NCBI GenBank assembly: GCA_019358935.1
Contig: JAHHIK010000019.1
Span: forward strand, 1 to 64,000
Source of the DNA: Tolypothrix carrinoi HA7290-LM1
GTDB lineage: Bacteria > Cyanobacteriota > Cyanobacteriia > Cyanobacteriales > Nostocaceae
Direction: 5' to 3'
DNA: 64,000 nt
Part shown: one piece after another, positions 17,606-63,100 of the stretch
Layout of the letters: every line of letters starts with the position of its first letter
How positions within the stretch are numbered: the stretch's first letter is position 1
Made by a program: the position numbers and the translations under genes
Notes under the pieces: generated by a model
What the model saw: the letters and a program-made list of their open reading frames with translations, nothing else
Databases searched by the model: none
What the model was told of the DNA's origin: nothing

Positions 17606-18664
17606 ATGAGCAATCAATTGATTTTTTTTATTATCACTCAACTCAAGCCAAAACGCTTGCAGTTGGCTGTGATAAATAGCGGTTTTACCCTCATAGAACT
17701 TTTGGTAGCAATGGTTCTTGCATTTTTGGTAATTACGCCTTTATTAGGGTTCATGATTAATGTTATGGACACTGACCGCAAGGAGCAAGCCAAAGTTAAC
17801 TCTGAGCAAGAAGTACAAGCAGCACTTGACTATATCGCTCAGGACTTGCAACAGGCAATATACGTCTATGATGCTAAAGGTATTCAAGCAATTTATAGGA
17901 AAGATAAAACGGGGCTACCCTACACCGATAAAACAGATAGAGTTCCTGTGTTGGTATTTTGGAAACGAGAGTTTAAGAATCAGGCAATCAATGTGAAAGT
18001 TGGTTCAGTTGACAAAGGTAAAAATGATAGTTTTGTCTACTCTCTTGTAGCTTACTATTTAATCAAAAACGATTCCCAAACTATATGGTCAGATCAACTC
18101 CGAATTGGCAGGTTTGAAATAAAAGACGGAGTTAGAGATCTTGATGATCCAATTAATGCGGATGGTACACCTAAATATGTTAAGGATGAAGATCCAGACA
18201 ATGGCTTTAAGATGTTTAGCCTCAATAATACATCAGGTACTCTTGAGGACAAGATGAATGCGTGGACGAAATCTAGCGACGCATACACTAATGATGCAGT
18301 GGCATTAGTTGATTATATCGATGAAAGCCTTGCAACTACAGAAAATAAACTAGAACGAGTAGGCTGTACAACAGTTTTTCAAGACAGAGATAATAAAGAC
18401 ACACCCCAAGCTAAGAAAGATGCACTAAGAGTTCCTGCTTTTAAAGGTGACAACAATTACGCATATTTTGATAACACTGACTTGAATACTGGTAGCTTCT
18501 ATGCTTGTGTAGATACTGACAAAAACTTAGTTAAAGTATTTATTAGAGGTAATGCATTGGCTAGAATTGACAAGCAAAATAATACCTATAATCCTAACAA
18601 GACGACATATTTTCCTAGTGCAACTATCCAAATTCAAGGCAAAGGACTCATCGGTATAAAATAA
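17606..18664 (+). CDS. hpsC: Minor pilin/pseudopilin HpsC-like
   Basis: SG|FTLIELLVA prepilin motif; synteny. Confidence 0.82.
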   Translation: MSNQLIFFIITQLKPKRLQLAVINSGFTLIELLVAMVLAFLVITPLLGFMINVMDTDRKEQAKVNSEQEVQAALDYIAQDLQQAIYVYDAKGIQAIYRKDKTGLPYTDKTDRVPVLVFWKREFKNQAINVKVGSVDKGKNDSFVYSLVAYYLIKNDSQTIWSDQLRIGRFEIKDGVRDLDDPINADGTPKYVKDEDPDNGFKMFSLNNTSGTLEDKMNAWTKSSDAYTNDAVALVDYIDESLATTENKLERVGCTTVFQDRDNKDTPQAKKDALRVPAFKGDNNYAYFDNTDLNTGSFYACVDTDKNLVKVFIRGNALARIDKQNNTYNPNKTTYFPSATIQIQGKGLIGIK

Positions 18665-18677
18665 TTCACAGGATAGT

Positions 18678-19433
18678 ATGGAAGATTTATTTTTATTCAA
18701 ATTACTACAGCGAGGCAACTTGAGGAAAGTAACTGCAAAATATAACATCTACCTAGGGCGATATCTTGCGAGAAGCCGATTTGCATCTACAGGTCTTACT
18801 CAACCAACTGCTGGGTTTACCTTAATTGAGTTGATAGCAGTGGTGGTGATGGTGGGAATTTTATCAGCGATCGCAGCTCCTGGGTGGCTTGCGTTTACTA
18901 ACCGACAACGGGTAAATAAAGTTAATGATGTAGTTTTGTTAGCACTACAGGAAGCGCAACGAGAAGCTAAAAAGAAAAAACTTGACTACAGCGTCAGTTT
19001 TAAAGTTAAAGACAAAGTTACTAAAATTGCCATTCATCCTGATTCTACCCCCGCTAAAGACCTACCTGAAGATGTCTGGAAACCTTTAGGCGGAGATTTA
19101 GAAATTAAACCTGGACAATTTATTCTAGGTACAAATTTTAGCGATAAGGATACAAGTGATAAAAAGAAAGCTGTTACTGCTGTATCCTACGATTTAAGTA
19201 ACCCAAAAACAATTTCCTTTAACTATATGGGTTATTTGCCGTCAAATGCAAACTTAGTTTCAGCCGCAACAGATTCAACAGAAGCACCCGGTTTAAAAGT
19301 TGTAGTAGCTGTACCTCAACCAGGAAGTATTACAGAAGCTAGTAATATTAAACGATGTGTAATTGTGAAAACTATTTTAGGTTCAATAATAACTGAAACA
19401 GATGACAAATGTGATAAACAAATACACAAATAA
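18678..19433 (+). CDS. hpsD: Prepilin-type protein (FimT/HpsD-like)
   Basis: AG|FTLIELIAV motif; C-terminal KRCVIVKTILG. Confidence 0.72.
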   Translation: MEDLFLFKLLQRGNLRKVTAKYNIYLGRYLARSRFASTGLTQPTAGFTLIELIAVVVMVGILSAIAAPGWLAFTNRQRVNKVNDVVLLALQEAQREAKKKKLDYSVSFKVKDKVTKIAIHPDSTPAKDLPEDVWKPLGGDLEIKPGQFILGTNFSDKDTSDKKKAVTAVSYDLSNPKTISFNYMGYLPSNANLVSAATDSTEAPGLKVVVAVPQPGSITEASNIKRCVIVKTILGSIITETDDKCDKQIHK

Positions 19434-19573
19434 AATATTAAAAACTTACGTCTAATTAATATATAAAATTAATTTTTTAAAGGAGAATATACTTAAAAAA
19501 ATATGATTTTATTTATATATTAATCGTGAGAATTTAGCTCTAAAATATCAAAATCCAATACAAATTTTACCTT

Positions 19574-20533
19574 ATGACTGAGAACCTTGACTTTACTGTA
19601 GCCATCCCAACTTACAATGGTGAAAGTCGCTTGCCTGAACTGCTGGAACGGTTACGAAATCAACTTAATACCGAACACTTATGTTGGGAAATCATCGTTG
19701 TAGATAATAACAGCACTGACAACACAGCTAAAGTTGTTCAAACCTATCAAGCAAACTGGCAATGTCCTTACCCCTTAAAGTATTGCTTTGAACCGCAACA
19801 GGGAGCAGCATACGCCAGAAAACGAGCAGTTGAGGAAGCCAAAAGCAAATTTATCGGTTTTCTTGATGATGATAATTACCCAGTATCAGACTGGGTTGCA
19901 AAAGCTTATGACTTTGGTCAAAAAAATCCAAAACTGGGGGCTTATGGTAGCCAAATCCACCCAAACTGGGAAGTAGAACCACCAGAAAATTTTCAGCGCA
20001 TCGCGCCTTTTTTGGCAATTACTGAGCGCGGAAATTTGCCTTTGCTGTATGAAGCTTCAAAAAAATTACTACCACCTTCTGCTGGACTTGTTGTTCGCCG
20101 ACAAGCGTGGTTAGAAAGCGTGCCGAATCATTCTATTTTAACTGGCAGAGTCGCTGGCAATATGCTTACCAGTGAAGACTTAGAAATGTTGTCTTACATC
20201 CAGAAAGCTGGTTGGGAAATTTGGTATAACCCAGAAATGGAAATATATCATCAGATACCTCATTGGCGCTTGCAAAGAGAGTATTTGATTCCATTTTTTC
20301 AAGGTATTGGACTTAGCCGATATGTTACCCGAATGATGAATATAAACCCTTGGGTTAAACCATTCGCTTTTTTTGCCTATATAATAAATGACTTGCGTAA
20401 AATTGTCTTGCATTTACTTAAATATCGGACACAGGTAAAAACTGAGTTGGTCGCTGCTTGTGAAATGCAACTGTTTTTAAGTAGTTTAATTAGTCCTTTT
20501 TTCCTGTGGAAAAAGGGATATTTTAATAAATAA
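19574..20533 (+). CDS. hpsE: Hormogonium polysaccharide glycosyltransferase HpsE
   Basis: GT2 motifs (FLDDDN); position after the pilin genes. Confidence 0.82.
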   Translation: MTENLDFTVAIPTYNGESRLPELLERLRNQLNTEHLCWEIIVVDNNSTDNTAKVVQTYQANWQCPYPLKYCFEPQQGAAYARKRAVEEAKSKFIGFLDDDNYPVSDWVAKAYDFGQKNPKLGAYGSQIHPNWEVEPPENFQRIAPFLAITERGNLPLLYEASKKLLPPSAGLVVRRQAWLESVPNHSILTGRVAGNMLTSEDLEMLSYIQKAGWEIWYNPEMEIYHQIPHWRLQREYLIPFFQGIGLSRYVTRMMNINPWVKPFAFFAYIINDLRKIVLHLLKYRTQVKTELVAACEMQLFLSSLISPFFLWKKGYFNK

Positions 20534-20603
20534 TTTTTCATGATTAATTATTATTTTTAAGAGTGGAAATGAAATAAAAAATAATAATTAATGTATCAAG
20601 ATA

Positions 20604-21188
20604 TTGGGTGCATTAAATTTGGAAAAAACCTTGGTGCGTCTTCTACTTTTAGTTAATACAAAAAATATCTCCAAGAATCGCTTTAACAGTGGCTTTACGC
20701 TGCTAGAGATTTTGGTAGTTGTAGTATTAATAGGTATATTAGCTGCGATCGCTCTCCCCAGTTGGCTGACTTTTGTAAACGTTCAACGCCTCAACACTGC
20801 CCAAAACCAAGTTTACAACGCCATGCGCCAAGCTCAAAGCCAAGCCAAAAAACAAAAATTAACCTGGCAAGTCAGCTTTAAAGAACAAAACAATATCGTT
20901 CAGTGGGCAGTTCATCCTGCTACCCTAAATGCATCTGTCGCTAATTGGAACAATCTAGATTCTAATATACGCTTAGATGAAGAAACAACCTTACAACAGT
21001 CAAATGGGATCAGGCAAATCCAATTTGATTATGGAGGTAATGTCACGAAGCCACCGTTAGGAAAGATAACGCTATCTAGTAAATATGGTGGTAAAGTCAA
21101 GCGTTGCGTCTATGTTTCTACAATTTTAGGGGCAATGCGAACGGCAAAAGAACGTGCTACAACTAAAGACGGTGATTATTGCTATTAA
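20604..21188 (+). CDS. Prepilin-type protein (HpsH-like); start uncertain
   Basis: SG|FTLLEILVV motif; KRCVYVSTILG. Confidence 0.8.
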   Translation: MGALNLEKTLVRLLLLVNTKNISKNRFNSGFTLLEILVVVVLIGILAAIALPSWLTFVNVQRLNTAQNQVYNAMRQAQSQAKKQKLTWQVSFKEQNNIVQWAVHPATLNASVANWNNLDSNIRLDEETTLQQSNGIRQIQFDYGGNVTKPPLGKITLSSKYGGKVKRCVYVSTILGAMRTAKERATTKDGDYCY

Positions 21189-21225
21189 AATATTTGTGAT
21201 TGTTTAGACAAGATACTCCGCGTGC

Positions 21226-21861
21226 GTGCTGAAATCACCAAAATACTCGAAACAGCATCTAATTATTTTTACTCGCTACCCAGAACCGGGAAAGACAAAA
21301 ACTCGGCTGATACCTGCTTTGGGGAGTGTTGGTGCTGCGAATCTTCAGCGACAGATGACTGAACATACAGTATCCCAAGTTAAACAATTGCAAGCAAATA
21401 CTGCTATCTCTTTAGAAATACGGTTTGCGGGTGGTAATTTGCAATTGATGCAAGATTGGCTGGGGTCTGATTTAGTTTATCAGTTACAAGGTGAAGGCGA
21501 TCTGGGTTCGCGAATGATGCGATCGCTCTTAAATTCTTTTCAAAAAAATGCCGAACAAGTAGTTATCATTGGTACAGATTGCCCTGGTGTAAATCCTCAG
21601 ATTGTCGCAACAGCTTTTGAGCAACTGCACGTCTTTGACTTGGTGCTTGGTCCTGCGGTAGACGGTGGCTATTACTTGATTGGTTTGCAGCAGCCGTTTC
21701 CCGAATTATTGACTAACATCGATTGGGGAACTTCTCAAGTTTTCTCACAAACTGTGGATATTGCCCAGAAACTTAACTTATCAGTCGCTTACTTACCTAC
21801 CTTAGCTGATGTTGACCGTCCAGAGGATCTGCCGATTTGGGAACAAGAGACTAAGGAGTAG
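21226..21861 (+). CDS. DUF2064/TIGR04282-like glycosyltransferase (HpsI-like)
   Basis: IFTRYPEPGKTKTRL, QGEGDLGSRM, IGTDCP, GPAVDGGYYLIG, DVDRPEDL. Confidence 0.85.
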   Translation: MLKSPKYSKQHLIIFTRYPEPGKTKTRLIPALGSVGAANLQRQMTEHTVSQVKQLQANTAISLEIRFAGGNLQLMQDWLGSDLVYQLQGEGDLGSRMMRSLLNSFQKNAEQVVIIGTDCPGVNPQIVATAFEQLHVFDLVLGPAVDGGYYLIGLQQPFPELLTNIDWGTSQVFSQTVDIAQKLNLSVAYLPTLADVDRPEDLPIWEQETKE

Positions 21862-22105
21862 GGACTAGGGAGTGGGCAGTGGGGAGTGGGGACAAGGGAG
21901 ACAAGGGGGACAAGGGGGACAAGGGGGACAAGGGAGACAAGGAAGACAAGGGGGACAAGGGAGAAATTTACTTTTCCTATCTCCCCCATCCCCCCTCTCC
22001 CCCTCTCCCCATCCCCCTTGTCCCCCCCATCCCCCTTGTCCCCCTTGTCCCCCTTGTCCCCCCCATCCCCCTTGTCCTCCTTGTCCCCCCCATCCCCCTC
22101 TCCCT
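21860..22105. repeat. Inverted purine/pyrimidine tandem repeat arrays (GGGGACAAG)n ... (CCCCTTGTC)n
   Basis: Seen directly; forms a long imperfect hairpin. Confidence 0.85.
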
Positions 22106-22320
22106 TAGTCAACGCTTGTATAGTCGAACACGAGGAATTTCCGGAAGACACCCTAAACTACAGGTGCTACCGTGGTGTAGTTTAAAATCAAGGGGTAAAA
22201 ATTCAATTTAATGTATTAAATTTGCTCTGAGGTTCTAAATAACAGATAAGGTCAAGGGAACAATATTCCAGTAACTTTAAATATGACATTCAATAATATT
22301 CACTACAAGACCGAAAAACT

Positions 22321-23163
22321 ATGATTGACCGTTTGGCTACTGTGAACGCTGCCCGCACACTAAAAGTGGTTGGGACTATCTTAATTTTGTCCTTTTTGCT
22401 GGACTTTTTGATTCTGTTGTTTCCCTTCCAACCGACTGATAAAGGGTGGCAAATCGGCTTGGCAACAGCGCTAGTTGACCGAGGAATTGTGCCTATGGTT
22501 GGCTTGGGGATGCTGTTTGCCGGATATTGGATTGATGGTACTAGTGATGGCGATCGCCCACAACCTGTAGATTTAAGATTTCCTGCACTGATACTATCGA
22601 GTATCTTAGGGTTGTTGTTCTTACTGATTTTTCCCTTGCACCTCAACAATGTGAATCAAGCTAAGTCTCAGACAGTAACTCGAATCAACCAAGATGCGGA
22701 GCAGGCAGAAAATCAACTCAATAGCCAGTTAACTCAATTACAAGCACAACTGGGTAACGCTCAGGTTAAGGCTCAATTAGAACAGCAAAAGAGCCAAATC
22801 AAAGCTCAGTTTACTGACTTGCTCAAAGATGAGCAGAAATATAAGCAAGCACTTGATAATCCTAACTTACCTCCAACTCAGAAAGAATTACTCAAAAAGT
22901 TTAAGGCAAATCCCCAAGAACTTGACAAATTTCTAGCGCAGCAAAGCGATCCTCAGGGACTTGCAAAAGAAAGACTTAACCAAATTCGCCAGCGCAAGGA
23001 AGAAGCCCAAAAACAAGCTCAACAAGAAGCTTTGAAGTCTGGACTGCGGATTGGTATGAGTAGTTTGCTATTGGCTATTGGTTACATTATCATCGGCTGG
23101 ACAGGATTAAGAGGCATGGGTGCTTTACAAGGTGGTGGACGTAAAAAAGCGCCCGCACGCTAA
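22321..23163 (+). CDS. hpsJ: HpsJ family membrane protein
   Basis: TM helices with LVDRGIVPMVG, Q-rich coiled coil, C-terminal TM; synteny. Confidence 0.8.
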   Translation: MIDRLATVNAARTLKVVGTILILSFLLDFLILLFPFQPTDKGWQIGLATALVDRGIVPMVGLGMLFAGYWIDGTSDGDRPQPVDLRFPALILSSILGLLFLLIFPLHLNNVNQAKSQTVTRINQDAEQAENQLNSQLTQLQAQLGNAQVKAQLEQQKSQIKAQFTDLLKDEQKYKQALDNPNLPPTQKELLKKFKANPQELDKFLAQQSDPQGLAKERLNQIRQRKEEAQKQAQQEALKSGLRIGMSSLLLAIGYIIIGWTGLRGMGALQGGGRKKAPAR

Positions 23164-23325
23164 TCTTTCATCTGTAGAGCAGTTAGACTGTCAACATGAA
23201 AAATAGAGACAGACTTAACTTGTAGTTAGCGCTTTAGCGCTAAAGCGCCAACTACAATGAGTCACATCTGTACGCAGTTGATGACGGCTGTTTAGCAATT
23301 AGTAAAATCTTTATAAAACTAGAAA

Positions 23326-24216
23326 ATGCTCTCAGTTTACATACTCACATATAACGAAGAGTTAGATATTGCCGCTTGTATTGAGTCAGCAATGCTATCG
23401 GATGACATTATTGTTGTAGACTCATGCAGTAGCGATCGCACTGTCGAAATAGCAAAAAACTATCCTGTACGTGTTGTTCAACATGCTTTTGAAAGCCACG
23501 GCAAACAACGTACCTGGATGCTAGAATCTATTGCCCCCAAATACGAATGGGTCTACATTCTAGAGGCTGACGAGCGCATGACACCAGAACTATTTGCTGA
23601 ATGCCTCGAAGCGATGAATAATCCAGAGTATATCGGCTATTATGTCGCTGAACGTGTCATGTTCATGAATCGCTGGATTCGCCACAGCACTCAATATCCC
23701 CGTTACCAACTGCGGCTGTTCCGTCATGGTAAAGTTTGGTTTGACGACTACGGTCATACTGAACGCGAAGTTTGTGATGGCGCAACCAGCTTTTTAAAGG
23801 AAACTTACCCCCACTATACTTGTAGCAAAGGCTTGACCCGCTGGATAGAAAAGCACAATCGTTACTCTACAGATGAAGCTAAAGAAACTCTATATCAACT
23901 AGAACACGGCAACGTTAACTGGCGAAGTTTGTTTTTTGGTAAGTCAGAAGTCGAAAAACGCCGCGCTTTAAAAGATTTGTCTTTGCGTTTACCCGCTCGA
24001 CCACTGTTACGCTTTTTGTATATGTATTTTATTTTGGGCGGTTGCTTGGACGGACGCGCCGGCACTGCTTGGTGTACACTACAAGCATTCTACGAATATC
24101 TAATTTTGCTGAAAGTTTGGGAAATGAAGCACATGCCGAAACCCCCTTCAGATATAGAAGCAGCTATAGGCGAGAATAATGCCCAGATGACAGCACCTGA
24201 AAAACTATCTCTATAA
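23326..24216 (+). CDS. GT2 glycosyltransferase (HpsK-like)
   Basis: SVYILTYNEE, ILEADER, WIEKHNRYS. Confidence 0.85.
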   Translation: MLSVYILTYNEELDIAACIESAMLSDDIIVVDSCSSDRTVEIAKNYPVRVVQHAFESHGKQRTWMLESIAPKYEWVYILEADERMTPELFAECLEAMNNPEYIGYYVAERVMFMNRWIRHSTQYPRYQLRLFRHGKVWFDDYGHTEREVCDGATSFLKETYPHYTCSKGLTRWIEKHNRYSTDEAKETLYQLEHGNVNWRSLFFGKSEVEKRRALKDLSLRLPARPLLRFLYMYFILGGCLDGRAGTAWCTLQAFYEYLILLKVWEMKHMPKPPSDIEAAIGENNAQMTAPEKLSL

Positions 24217-24599
24217 TAAGGCGATCGCCAATAGGAAATAATTTTTTTCCTATTCCTTAATAATGTTACATTTACTATAAATTAAGATTTGTAACATAAC
24301 TTTTTATCTTCTGCCGTCGTGCCGATGTAAGACTGACTCACCGAGCTAAACAGAGCAATAACGCTGAACGAATAAAGCTTTCAGAATTATGGGCAGCTTT
24401 TTAGCTAGCGCGGTAGGATCAATAAAAGCCTAAAAGACTTGCAACAATCATTTACAAGTCTGACAAAGAAAAGTAACAACCTCTGAGAATAACCAGCCAT
24501 CATTCTGGTTGGTACATGTCCATATGGACTAAAGCTGAGGTTTACAAAGGAATCAGAACTTCAGGTGATTTGGGCTTGCATCGCGTCAAATCCCATTGA

Positions 24600-24920
24600 G
24601 TGAAGTACCTACACTGTATACGAAGTATACAGTGTAGGCTTACCGTCTCACTTGCCGTCGCCTCATTAAACCCGTGTTTAATTTGGTCTTACACAGCATC
24701 TCTGGTCTTTACGACCTTTATCCCCTCATGGAGAACCCAGGCAGCCGCCCATCTTCCATAGGCAGTTTATTATTTTTTCAGCGATACACTTACCTTGGAT
24801 TTATGACAATGGTCAACCAGCAGGGTTTGCGTTTTTCCCGATCTCTGATGTTGCACACGTCTAGTCTGACTACTTTGAAGTTAGCCTTTCTGTTCCATAC
24901 AGTCGGGTGGGTCATCGACC
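24600..24920 (-). ncRNA. Candidate omega/reRNA-like structured RNA
   Basis: Non-coding segment running from an extended -10 box (TGtTAATAT, 24927-24935) to the right-end hairpin; starts with a GGTCGATGACC hairpin. Confidence 0.5.
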
Positions 24921-24939
24921 ATTTATATATTAACATAGA

Positions 24940-24960
24940 TAGACGTATATTGTATGTCTA
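24940..24960. promoter_or_regulatory. Palindromic operator between the RHH gene and the candidate ncRNA
   Basis: TAGACGTATA-T-TGTATGTCTA, 8/10 inverted match. Confidence 0.5.
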
Positions 24961-25142
24961 CTATGAAAGCCGGAAGACTTAATCTGAGAATATCTGAAAA
25001 AAGATTAGTTAAGCTCAAAGCCTATGCAGCAATCAAAGAAAAAACAATTACGCAGTTGTTTGAAGATTGGATTGACCGACTACCGACGAAGGATATTGCG
25101 GATTCGTCATCGACCTCACTCCCTAATCAGCCTGGTGGTTGA
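24954..25142 (+). CDS. Ribbon-helix-helix (CopG-like) DNA-binding protein; start may be 24963
   Basis: RLNLRIS beta strand, then KLKAYAA and TITQLFEDWIDRL helices. Confidence 0.75.
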   Translation: MSTMKAGRLNLRISEKRLVKLKAYAAIKEKTITQLFEDWIDRLPTKDIADSSSTSLPNQPGG

Positions 25143-25385
25143 TATCGGTAGTCGGTCAATTCCTCATCAAGAACAAAAATTCACGCTCTAACTGACCTTA
25201 TCGGGTACAGTGTGAGCCTTCTTTTTGAAAAAGGTAAAAGTTAGTATAGGTTGGCGGAAATGACTAGACAGTTATAGAAAAGCCAAAAGGTAGATGATAT
25301 ATATATGTATCATTCGCGTTGCTGCCTCTTGCACTCTTAATTTTGAAAGCAGATTTAAAATGCAGGCAAACGACATTAGTGCAAT

Positions 25386-61650: not shown

Positions 61651-63100
61651 GTCAACTACCCGCCACCAAACGGAGTACCGCTATGGTGGGGGCTTGCATC
61701 TTCGTTCCACCTCAATTCCGAAAACCTTCGCAGGATTTCAGCTTTGGCTTCATCACGAGACACATCAGGGAGTGCTGACAAGACCCCCGTACTAATCCAG
61801 TCTTGCCGGACAAGCAGCGTTCTAAGTGCAATATTCCTGGAACCTACCAAGTCAGCATGGAGTTCATATCCGCAACATTCACAGCGAAATAGTAAGCCTT
61901 TGTCTGGTCTATTAGTTTTCGATGTATGCCCACATTTAGGACAACTTTGCGAAGTGTAATGAGCCTGAACCTTAGTTGCTAAACTGCCATTTAAAACTGC
62001 TTTATAGTCAATATACCCGTGTAGTTCAGCAAATGACCATTTAGCTTTATTCCGATTAGCTTTACGCTGTTTCTTGCTAACCCTCTTGCCTGACCTAGAC
62101 TTAGTTCTTTCACGAATTCCGGTCAAGTTTTCTAGTCCAATCAAGCTGTTAGGTTTAGCAATTTGTTTGCTGATTTGGTGGTTCACGTCAGCGATAAACC
62201 GTCTCTCTCTGCCAGACAAAGTAATTGGTCTTCGCTTTGCTGACCGAGTGCCTTTACGCTGAAGACTTTGCCGTCTTTTGTGATAACGGTTAGCTATATG
62301 CCTAGCCTTCTTGCCAGAATAGAATTTAGTTTTATTCTGCAAGTCCGCTTCTACTGCTAAATAGCGTTGTCCAACGTCAACTCCTGAGATCCTAGTAATA
62401 GTCAATGGATTAATACTAAGTGCCTCGATTTCTAAACTCACCATCAGATAGTAAGTTTTTGATGAACGTTGATAGACAATCTTAGCTGCGCCAATCTTGA
62501 CGCAGTTGGCAATCAAATTTAAATGCTTGTTGTATCCATCGTAACGGACAATTACACGACCATTTAAAGTATTAATACTAACTCTTTGCTCACTCTTAAA
62601 AGAGTAGTCCCTTTGGTAGTTCAAAGTACAAGTACGAGAGATGTATTTAGGGGCTTTATCTAGTCCTTTATATCGTTTATTGGTGTACCCTTGCTTTATG
62701 GCTTCACTATTTTGTTTTGCTTTAGTCCACAAAGTTTTGTAGGTTGCCGATACTTGTCTAGGAATATTACACGCCATTTGCGCTCCCAGACTGAACCGGG
62801 TTCGTAGGTCTGCATAAACTAGTTTTTGCAACTTAGTGCCATTGCTGGACTTGCCATTGTCAAAAGCCACGAGCGAAGTGTAATTCAAGGCATCACGATA
62901 AGCCAAAGTCGTTTCAGCCACCAACGTTTTTTGCTCGGAGGAGAGATTCAACTTTAATTTAGCGGTAATTACTTGGTTCACAATCTTCACTGAACTCCGA
63001 ATTATTCTAACTAGTGAAGATATTTCTGGCAAGCACAATGCATTTGTTTGTCTCTTCCATCCATCCTTCAAGAGTGGTACCCACATTAGGCACATTAGTC
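61651..63100 (-). mobile_element. IS200/IS605-family tnpB-only (IS1341-like) element; left end approximate
   Basis: Right-end hairpin CCACC..AGCGGTACTCCGTT..GGTGG then GTAGTTGAC; no tnpA. Confidence 0.8.
61656..62981 (-). CDS. tnpB: RNA-guided endonuclease TnpB
   Basis: RuvC motifs GVDVG, GLENL, HADLVGSRNI; zinc finger CPKC..CECC; likely GTG start near 62981. Confidence 0.92.
   Translation of the reverse strand: MNQVITAKLKLNLSSEQKTLVAETTLAYRDALNYTSLVAFDNGKSSNGTKLQKLVYADLRTRFSLGAQMACNIPRQVSATYKTLWTKAKQNSEAIKQGYTNKRYKGLDKAPKYISRTCTLNYQRDYSFKSEQRVSINTLNGRVIVRYDGYNKHLNLIANCVKIGAAKIVYQRSSKTYYLMVSLEIEALSINPLTITRISGVDVGQRYLAVEADLQNKTKFYSGKKARHIANRYHKRRQSLQRKGTRSAKRRPITLSGRERRFIADVNHQISKQIAKPNSLIGLENLTGIRERTKSRSGKRVSKKQRKANRNKAKWSFAELHGYIDYKAVLNGSLATKVQAHYTSQSCPKCGHTSKTNRPDKGLLFRCECCGYELHADLVGSRNIALRTLLVRQDWISTGVLSALPDVSRDEAKAEILRRFSELRWNEDASPHHSGTPFGGG

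Follow-up and report, generated by a model that had tools for sequence, protein, structure and literature searches.

How might a guide RNA be put to use by a mobile element that has no nuclease gene of its own? The question is raised by a short region of the window, that is, the whole stretch of DNA analysed here, 64,000 nucleotides from Tolypothrix carrinoi HA7290-LM1. A preliminary description had read this region as a nuclease-free IS605-type cassette, in which a small ribbon-helix-helix (RHH) gene diverges from an omega-like RNA of about 320 nt that would load a TnpB/Cas12f-like protein in trans. It had also named what should be looked for: empty sites, copies with different flanks, versions carrying tnpB, covariation in the RNA and any sign that the RNA is a decayed tnpB coding sequence. 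The cassette has been corroborated, both by an empty site and by copies with differing flanks. The 634 bp of window 24600-25233 form a non-autonomous IS200/IS605 element of filamentous cyanobacteria that carries a small putative repressor gene but codes for neither a nuclease nor a transposase (Table 1).

Table 1. Features of the element and its borders, by position in the window
Feature	Position	Strand	Basis or detail
Whole non-autonomous IS200/IS605 element, 634 bp	24600..25233	-	Left end 25233, right end 24600; empty site
Target motif TTTAC, predicted TAM, directly outside left end	25234..25238	-	Retained at empty site
Left end	25185..25233	-	Predicted DNA guide AAGG (25220-25217) and imperfect hairpin 25217-25185
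Predicted Arc/CopG-type ribbon-helix-helix repressor gene, 62 aa, pointing to left end	24954..25142	+	ORF; fold evidence
Imperfect inverted repeat, predicted RHH operator, between divergent promoters	24940..24960		Half-site tracks RHH beta-strand
Extended -10 promoter of the RNA, TG-T-TAATAT	24927..24935	-	Start predicted near 24921
Conserved structured 5' RNA domain: 5' hairpin, long multi-loop stem, second stem, A-rich linker	24770..24922	-	Covariation
TnpB omega-RNA-like 3' core: GGAAG-loop stem (24757-24753), inner stems, right-end stem	24600..24769	-	Pair changes, profile matches
Right end: DNA guide position TAAG, perfect 14-bp hairpin 24638-24608, terminus TTCAC	24600..24642	-	
Flank, would-be RNA guide	24580..24599	-	Only TAM-flanked target is the empty site

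Boundaries, mobility and the missing tnpB

The boundaries can be read from an unoccupied site. In a genome of the same genus (G001) both flanks are joined directly after TTTAC with zero duplication, an exact empty site, and an RNA-library contig also jumps from 24599 to 25235, omitting 635 bases. The extent of the element therefore follows from these two junctions. They also establish the insertion mode, which is 3' of a 4-5 nt motif and without target duplication. TTTAC stands at an equal distance in 9 of 58 non-redundant copies, as counted with a narrow pattern that misses the TTAAC left-end types.

Subterminal hairpins, by which IS200/IS605 elements are recognized, are present at both ends. 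An inverted-repeat search recovered the perfect 14-bp hairpin noticed earlier (arms 24608-24621 and 24625-24638; z -5.1 as single-stranded DNA against 200 shuffles), after which the minus strand continues with TACTTCAC to its last base at 24600. The related hairpin first placed at 25185-25218 is there as well, as an imperfect one at 25185-25217 (z -2.3 as single-stranded DNA) that has one arm in common with the right end. TTAC, described as about 16 nt outside it, lies at 25237-25234, about 15 nt out. The left-end DNA guide AAGG is our assignment, by analogy with IS608. At the right end the DNA guide is TAAG in the window copy versus GAAG in most copies. This is one mark of drift, and one broken stem pair and an altered inner helix are others. 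Given this drift the window copy may be inactive, which is a point against the reading favoured below.

It is clear that the element has recently been mobile in several genomes. Near-identical copies with different flanks occur in G057, G070, G103, G178 and G187. The Tolypothrix genome itself has five diverged copies, including a full-length one that is 72% identical, one with a different RHH and one without an RHH. The same genome has seven Y1 TnpA hits (one read as a full ORF) and 51 TnpB zinc-ribbon hits.

Does any copy have tnpB in cis? Scanning one genome per species for the core motif yielded 117 loci, with the right-end motif at the expected distance in 104; among the best 80 of the 117, nearly all are from filamentous cyanobacteria and two others are chance matches. 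TnpB is absent upstream on the RNA's strand from all 74 loci with at least 1300 nt upstream, which bears out the earlier claim that the RNA overlaps no tnpB. A second scan, of metagenomes and with the promoter and 5' motif only, gave at least 118 loci. Among the matches listed, at least 25 belong to the window family, at least 51 to a sister family (see below), at least 38 are incomplete and at least four are other; no TnpB profile match lies behind the 5' motif in the 51 of these with at least 1300 nt downstream. The search for tnpB in cis returned only one weak match on the opposite strand (L112, E 1.6e-4), and an unrelated tnpB lies more than 1.2 kb past the right end in three loci.

Versions carrying tnpB do exist for the RHH gene. 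RHH matches occur in 24 of 151 phylum genomes, and in 27 loci viewed of 30 the RHH family faces tnpB in 16, the RNA in 10 and another insertion in one. By these counts the RNA therefore occupies the usual tnpB position behind the same promoter layout. By covariance model, the 5' domain is present in 18 of 151 genomes of the phylum and in 23 of 81 genomes of the family. A plasmid search gave zero DNA matches to the element and one RHH match. In viral contigs the core motif has no matches and the 5' motif has five, one of them a sister element and four apparently due to chance.

Two parts of the RNA

The predicted RNA of the window is 323 nt long and ends at the right end, and it was aligned with its relatives as 43 non-redundant copies of 318-411 nt. 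A 346-nt minus-strand stretch folds at z -3.2, partly through the end hairpin. The label omega-like, given at first to all of the RNA, stands for the 3' part of about 170 nt; it does not hold for the 5' part of about 153 nt (24922-24770), which by sequence comparison is a separate, modular RNA domain. In both halves the pairs covary, which is the signature of an RNA under structural selection.

The case for the core is as follows. Two-sided changes occur in 13 of 21 named pairs (one named pair, columns 470-553, is wrong), a number reached by one of 500 shuffles. The core profile matches the 3' ends of tnpB in the same genome, C33 and C97 (E 4e-6) and C95 (E 0.006), with modest scores. In 67 full-length loci, some of them redundant, the 3' end is conserved and the flanks are variable, the end motif having been part of the selection. 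The GGAAG loop is complementary to a 3' CUUCAC, with which it is predicted to form a pseudoknot. This match survives in 45 of 58 copies and, outside the loop-motif scan, in 17 of 28, counts that leave out the sister family because loops are mis-picked there. The two partners are invariant within the RNA family, and thus show no covariation there, and the location of the stem-loop is taken from ISDra2, in which the last bases of the omega-RNA pair with an upstream GGAAU-type stretch according to the available text (PMC10097598), a stretch that we read as a stem loop. Related tnpB elements have the swapped pair, GGAAC with GUUCAC. One of four RNA-library runs, X1, holds two contigs that are 99-100% alike to 24645-24836 and leave the RHH gene uncovered; strand, level and DNA carry-over are indistinguishable in them, and they were not counted as evidence of expression.

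The 5' domain is structured in its own right. Mutual information on the mixed alignment gave some false pairs arising from subfamily structure, so the subfamilies were counted separately. In subfamily A (25 sequences) 18 of 30 pairs have two-sided changes, 93.6% of cells pair and none of 500 shuffles does as well; in the sister family 16 of 26 pairs have such changes. All of these pair counts overstate independence, as the sequences are related and the structures were drawn from the same alignments, which gives them an advantage over the slid controls. In subfamily B the signal is weak, 4 of 21 pairs, which 175 of 500 shuffles reach. Covariance model R1 matches the 5' domain of the window, the window copy being in its training set.

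What is this domain? It is not a decayed tnpB coding sequence, the explanation that would have been most damaging to the preliminary description: none of 54 5' domains matches either TnpB profile at E<0.01, and the positive controls score 3 of 3. Rfam holds no relevant match at gathering score to the window, to 20 family loci or to 10 mostly sister loci. Below threshold, sister loci reach 26 bits for RAGATH-18 versus the 44.9 needed and match HgcC and sot0042 weakly. Identity as HEARO, RAGATH-18, a ribozyme or a riboswitch was rejected on these covariance models. An IscB-type reading on the plus strand was also dropped, because the conserved promoter and the core face the opposite way.

One clue to modularity is the company that the domain keeps. 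In 27 loci viewed of 30 (three of the 27 being interrupted by insertions) it always precedes an omega-like core and a right end. Another core to which it is joined matches the 3' tail found in a different TnpB clade; the ends there are GATGTCAA, and the left ends differ. At least one or two further cores carry it as well. The first of these combinations is the sister family (L205-L321, for example L228 and L292; L334-L339; L446), which has the same 5' domain, a different omega core and GATGTCAA ends. The sister family is RHH-less in the copies checked and one copy is on a viral contig. An internal loop seen by eye in this family resembles a K-turn.

The two families differ in a 4-nt match between the 3' edge of the domain and the RNA end. 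GTAC occurs in 31 of 54 copies of the window family versus 0 of 23 in the sister family, and GACA in 2 of 54 versus 8 of 23 (shuffle means 3.1 and 1.2). Possibly this complementarity is an alternative fold that would compete with the pseudoknot. The window itself has only a G-U version of it, at 24781-24790 on the minus strand.

The putative repressor gene and the divergent promoters

The small gene divergent from the RNA is real as an open reading frame, as had been described, although its start may be the ATG at 24963, which would give 59 aa by comparison with homologues. Several supports, individually weak, point together to an RHH fold for the protein of 24954-25142. The nearest Atlas cluster is CopG-family (0.97). 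The model has an extended N-terminus followed by two helices (pLDDT 81.7), and its top fold matches are ParG, KacA, AtaR, CopG and Arc, each of them weak (E > 0.2). Matches in Pfam are below the cut-off only, and sequence searches of PDB and NCBIfam gave none. A perfect 16-bp inverted repeat links the coding region (25071-25086) with a stretch just past the stop (25145-25160); it could fold the RHH mRNA or the single-stranded DNA of the element.

The palindrome at 24940-24960 was originally said to cover both promoters. This is correct for the RHH gene, whose predicted -10 and start it overlaps, and for the -35/spacer side of the RNA promoter. The RNA -10 is missed, however, and the repeat is imperfect, with perfect arms of only 5 bp. 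Nevertheless, the half-site appears to follow the beta-strand of the RHH. In 27 elements with a parsed RHH, read by eye, RLNLR goes with TAYGTCT in 6 of 6 (window copy included), SIR(I/V)R with GATAC in 5 of 5, DLHIR with TGWACA in 4 of 4, GLNLR with TCTACA in 4 of 4 and EVHIR with AGACAT in 2 of 2; the remaining six elements form smaller groups. Kin share both strand and half-site, and the pairing is therefore supportive only. Most likely the RHH binds this palindrome. The RHH variants and their matching operators amount to a small natural specificity code.

The promoter of the RNA is conserved. An extended -10 had been seen just upstream of 24920, and homologues keep it: of 43 copies that were not selected by promoter pattern, 42 have TAnnnT at 3-5 nt upstream of the RNA start, and the TG extension is found in 34 of the 43. 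Copies without an RHH conserve it too. A strict sigma-70 scan did not list 24935-24927, and its three hits are at chance level (shuffle mean 2.3).

Partners, mechanism and rival readings

Which protein could use such a guide? A TnpB/Cas12f-like partner had been suggested at first; the proteins that come nearest in their ends and in their RNA core belong to the ordinary IS605 TnpBs and not to Cas12f. A tracrRNA of Cas12k or Cas12f was considered as well and rejected, there being no Cas12k in the genome and no TnpB-like gene in cis. The left-end types of the RNA elements, TTTAC, TTAAC and TTAGC, are each also found on an intact TnpB element in G178. For TTTAC this is L405, whose left end is almost identical to that of the window and almost the same as on RHH-less RNA elements. 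Another TnpB clade of 383 aa (L368, at G228:C16; L356, L383, L384, L386) has an omega-RNA with the GGAAG loop and GTACTTCAC end of the RNA elements. It occurs in five of 81 genomes, four of them RNA-positive, versus 23 of 81 for the RNA, and the inner stems differ; these numbers do not support it as the sole partner. The window also has a separate TnpB gene of another clade, a 480-aa open frame with its own right end at 61830-62033 on the minus strand.

The would-be guide agrees with the predicted one, reading from 24599 downward. For none of five guides does the genome hold a second 14-nt match or a TAM-flanked near match, and for the window guide there is one 20-nt match with three mismatches and without TTAC. 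With the empty site as the only target, this fits retention and not gene regulation.

The reading that we put slightly ahead of even chance is a stand-alone guide, damped by a repressor, that relies on TnpA and TnpB in trans for its own retention; in place of the mRNA body, the 5' domain would serve to stabilise or load it. The TnpA of another element would move the 634-bp element. The RHH would occupy its operator and damp both divergent promoters. The 3' core would load an IS605 TnpB made elsewhere, the flank would become the guide, and the TnpB complex would cut the empty site left by excision, after which recombination would restore the element. Most likely the 5' domain substitutes for the missing tnpB mRNA. 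It would shield the naked RNA, fold it and aid its loading; trimming at the A-rich linker would follow, comparable to the trimming that the ISDra2 omega-RNA undergoes 5' of its scaffold. Two observations do not fit easily. The Tolypothrix assembly has no intact TnpB of the related clade, since C84 is frameshifted, C95 is truncated and C33 and C97 are tails at contig ends. Furthermore, one RNA family with three target motifs means that RNA, TnpB and TAM would need promiscuous loading.

What if the 5' domain is more than a substitute? It is conceivable, if doubtful, that it is an independent module set on several IS605 omega-RNAs, turning them into free-standing guides. These could capture TnpB in trans in one of three ways: the RNA might process itself, compete successfully with the cis omega-RNA or bring in another protein. 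If true, OMEGA systems would have an RNA-only parasite that brings a repressor of its own and whose RHH-operator code can be read. It is rather unlikely, in our estimate, that the domain has an activity or partner of its own, be it self-processing or the binding of TnpA, of a host protein or of a second protein, and that the RNA thereby does more than guide an ordinary TnpB. Its conservation across cyanobacterial orders, its compact internal loops and its union with at least three different cores and ends are all in keeping with such a role, as are the K-turn-like motif seen by eye in the sister family and the family-specific 4-nt match, and a simple 5' cap would need less structure. Yet the domain is never seen without an omega core and an IS end, it has no constant neighbour gene besides the optional RHH, and the absence of an Rfam ribozyme or riboswitch family and of Cas12k from the genome also counts against it. 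Alternatively, the RNA might be a sponge or decoy that titrates the nuclease away from helper elements or lowers its toxicity. This is improbable: the invariant 3' end sets the flank exactly at the guide position, and RHH repression better suits limiting a cutting activity. A decoy would account for a predicted TnpB-binding fold that is kept while the TAM type varies, and RNA-bearing genomes do have more loose TnpB candidates (median 40 versus 19.5, in 23 versus 58 genomes that are not independent), but a link with TnpB load is expected of any hitch-hiker.

The element could also be passive, a mini-element of the PATE or MITE kind whose folds were selected as single-stranded DNA for transposition, or are leftovers, with the RNA incidental. 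Many copies are indeed truncated or interrupted, some without the 5' domain persist at fixed sites, and minimal hairpin-only elements occur in the Tolypothrix genome. Passive carriage is nonetheless very improbable. The -10 box keeps its spacing and is conserved in copies without an RHH as well, G-U pairs and two-sided changes are frequent at a distance from the ends, the operator changes with the RHH, and the 5' domain is not tnpB debris. We give next to no credence to a portable promoter or leader kept for driving downstream host genes. A co-oriented ORF does lie within 60 nt of the right end in 10 of 46 copies and some sites are common to several species, but 28 of the 46 lack a co-oriented ORF within 300 nt, and in the window the RNA points against the neighbouring glycosyltransferase gene.

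Protein-less omega-RNA elements, stand-alone omega-RNAs (10.1101/2023.03.14.532601; PMC10691335) and repression by Arc are already published, so far as the accessible texts go. PATE-like IS200/IS605 elements of Geobacillus carry omega-RNAs (Meers et al., 10.1101/2023.03.14.532601, available text). Like the window element they lack tnpA and tnpB, have IS605 ends and would need a TnpB in trans. However, they have no protein gene and an extra RNA domain goes unmentioned in that text (10.1101/2023.03.14.532601), whereas the window element has an RHH with an operator, its own promoter and a covarying 5' domain of about 153 nt. Under the strict definition of a PATE, no protein gene, the window element is left out by its intact RHH ORF and its RHH-less relatives qualify. 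Standalone omega-RNAs of OMEGA systems work in trans, in a role called unknown in the part of the source consulted (Altae-Tran et al., PMC10691335), and they resemble the window RNA in being guides mobilised without an effector. RHH control and a modular 5' domain do not appear there, and cyanobacteria are absent from the main text (PMC10691335).

For the Arc repressors of IS605 elements, promoter repression has been demonstrated, according to the accessible text (Moon et al., 10.64898/2026.09.24.754181). As in the window, a small RHH gene is divergent from the tnpB position; Arc binds inverted motifs over a bidirectional promoter, which is only predicted for the window RHH. The combinations tested in that study were arc with tnpB or with tnpA and tnpB; Arc with an RNA only is not described in its available text, nor are cyanobacteria or non-coding elements mentioned (10.64898/2026.09.24.754181). 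The omega-RNA of ISDra2, in the available text (Nakagawa et al., PMC10097598), likewise has a scaffold that ends at the right end, a guide from the flank and a last-base pseudoknot, the latter predicted here. Its 5' region is dispensable and trimmed, and it is tnpB coding and disordered, whereas that of the window is non-coding and strongly covarying (PMC10097598). Also close are cyanobacterial RHH-tnpB elements (L180, L182, L199, L405, L387, L388, C95), which share the RHH family and promoter layout, or else the left ends and a similar omega core. They differ in carrying tnpB, with GTAGTTCAC as the end of the core-related clade, whereas the RNA elements carry the 5' domain and end in GTACTTCAC. 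Neither an Arc-plus-RNA element nor this 5' domain was described in the literature searched, a body of work from which subscription papers were mostly absent and whose supplements could list such elements. The loading of a guide that lacks a tnpB of its own can be tested directly in this family, which offers a long-conserved promoter-driven RNA whose 5' domain is separable, together with TnpB candidates that match and empty sites of natural origin. Should the 5' domain improve stability or loading, it could also serve as a natural component when TnpB guides are expressed in trans.

Some minor observations concern insertion sites and remnants. In the window, pilin-like and glycosyltransferase genes (17606-24216) lie upstream of the insertion, the last of them a Glycos_transf_2 gene. 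At L008 (G011:C92) a 500-aa gene, presumably transhydrogenase alpha-like, has an element at its end; the right end of the element supplies a replacement TGA stop, so that the gene stays intact. Elsewhere one site is fixed across several species (L010-L013, L015, L083, L105, L131; L057, L067, L069 and other Microcoleus loci), either between what we take to be CP12-like and FIST-like genes or before a presumed rubredoxin-like gene, and these fixed-site copies have often truncated or lost the 5' domain. A minimal single-hairpin element lies at G000:C67 near 36700 (minus-strand count), a copy of the RNA core truncated at its 5' end at G000:C87:36184-36308 and an orphan left end of the same type at G000:C114:7002-7033. 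In L102 and L116 the 3' part of the RNA core is apparently interrupted by the insertion of another element, which we take to be HEARO/IscB-like.
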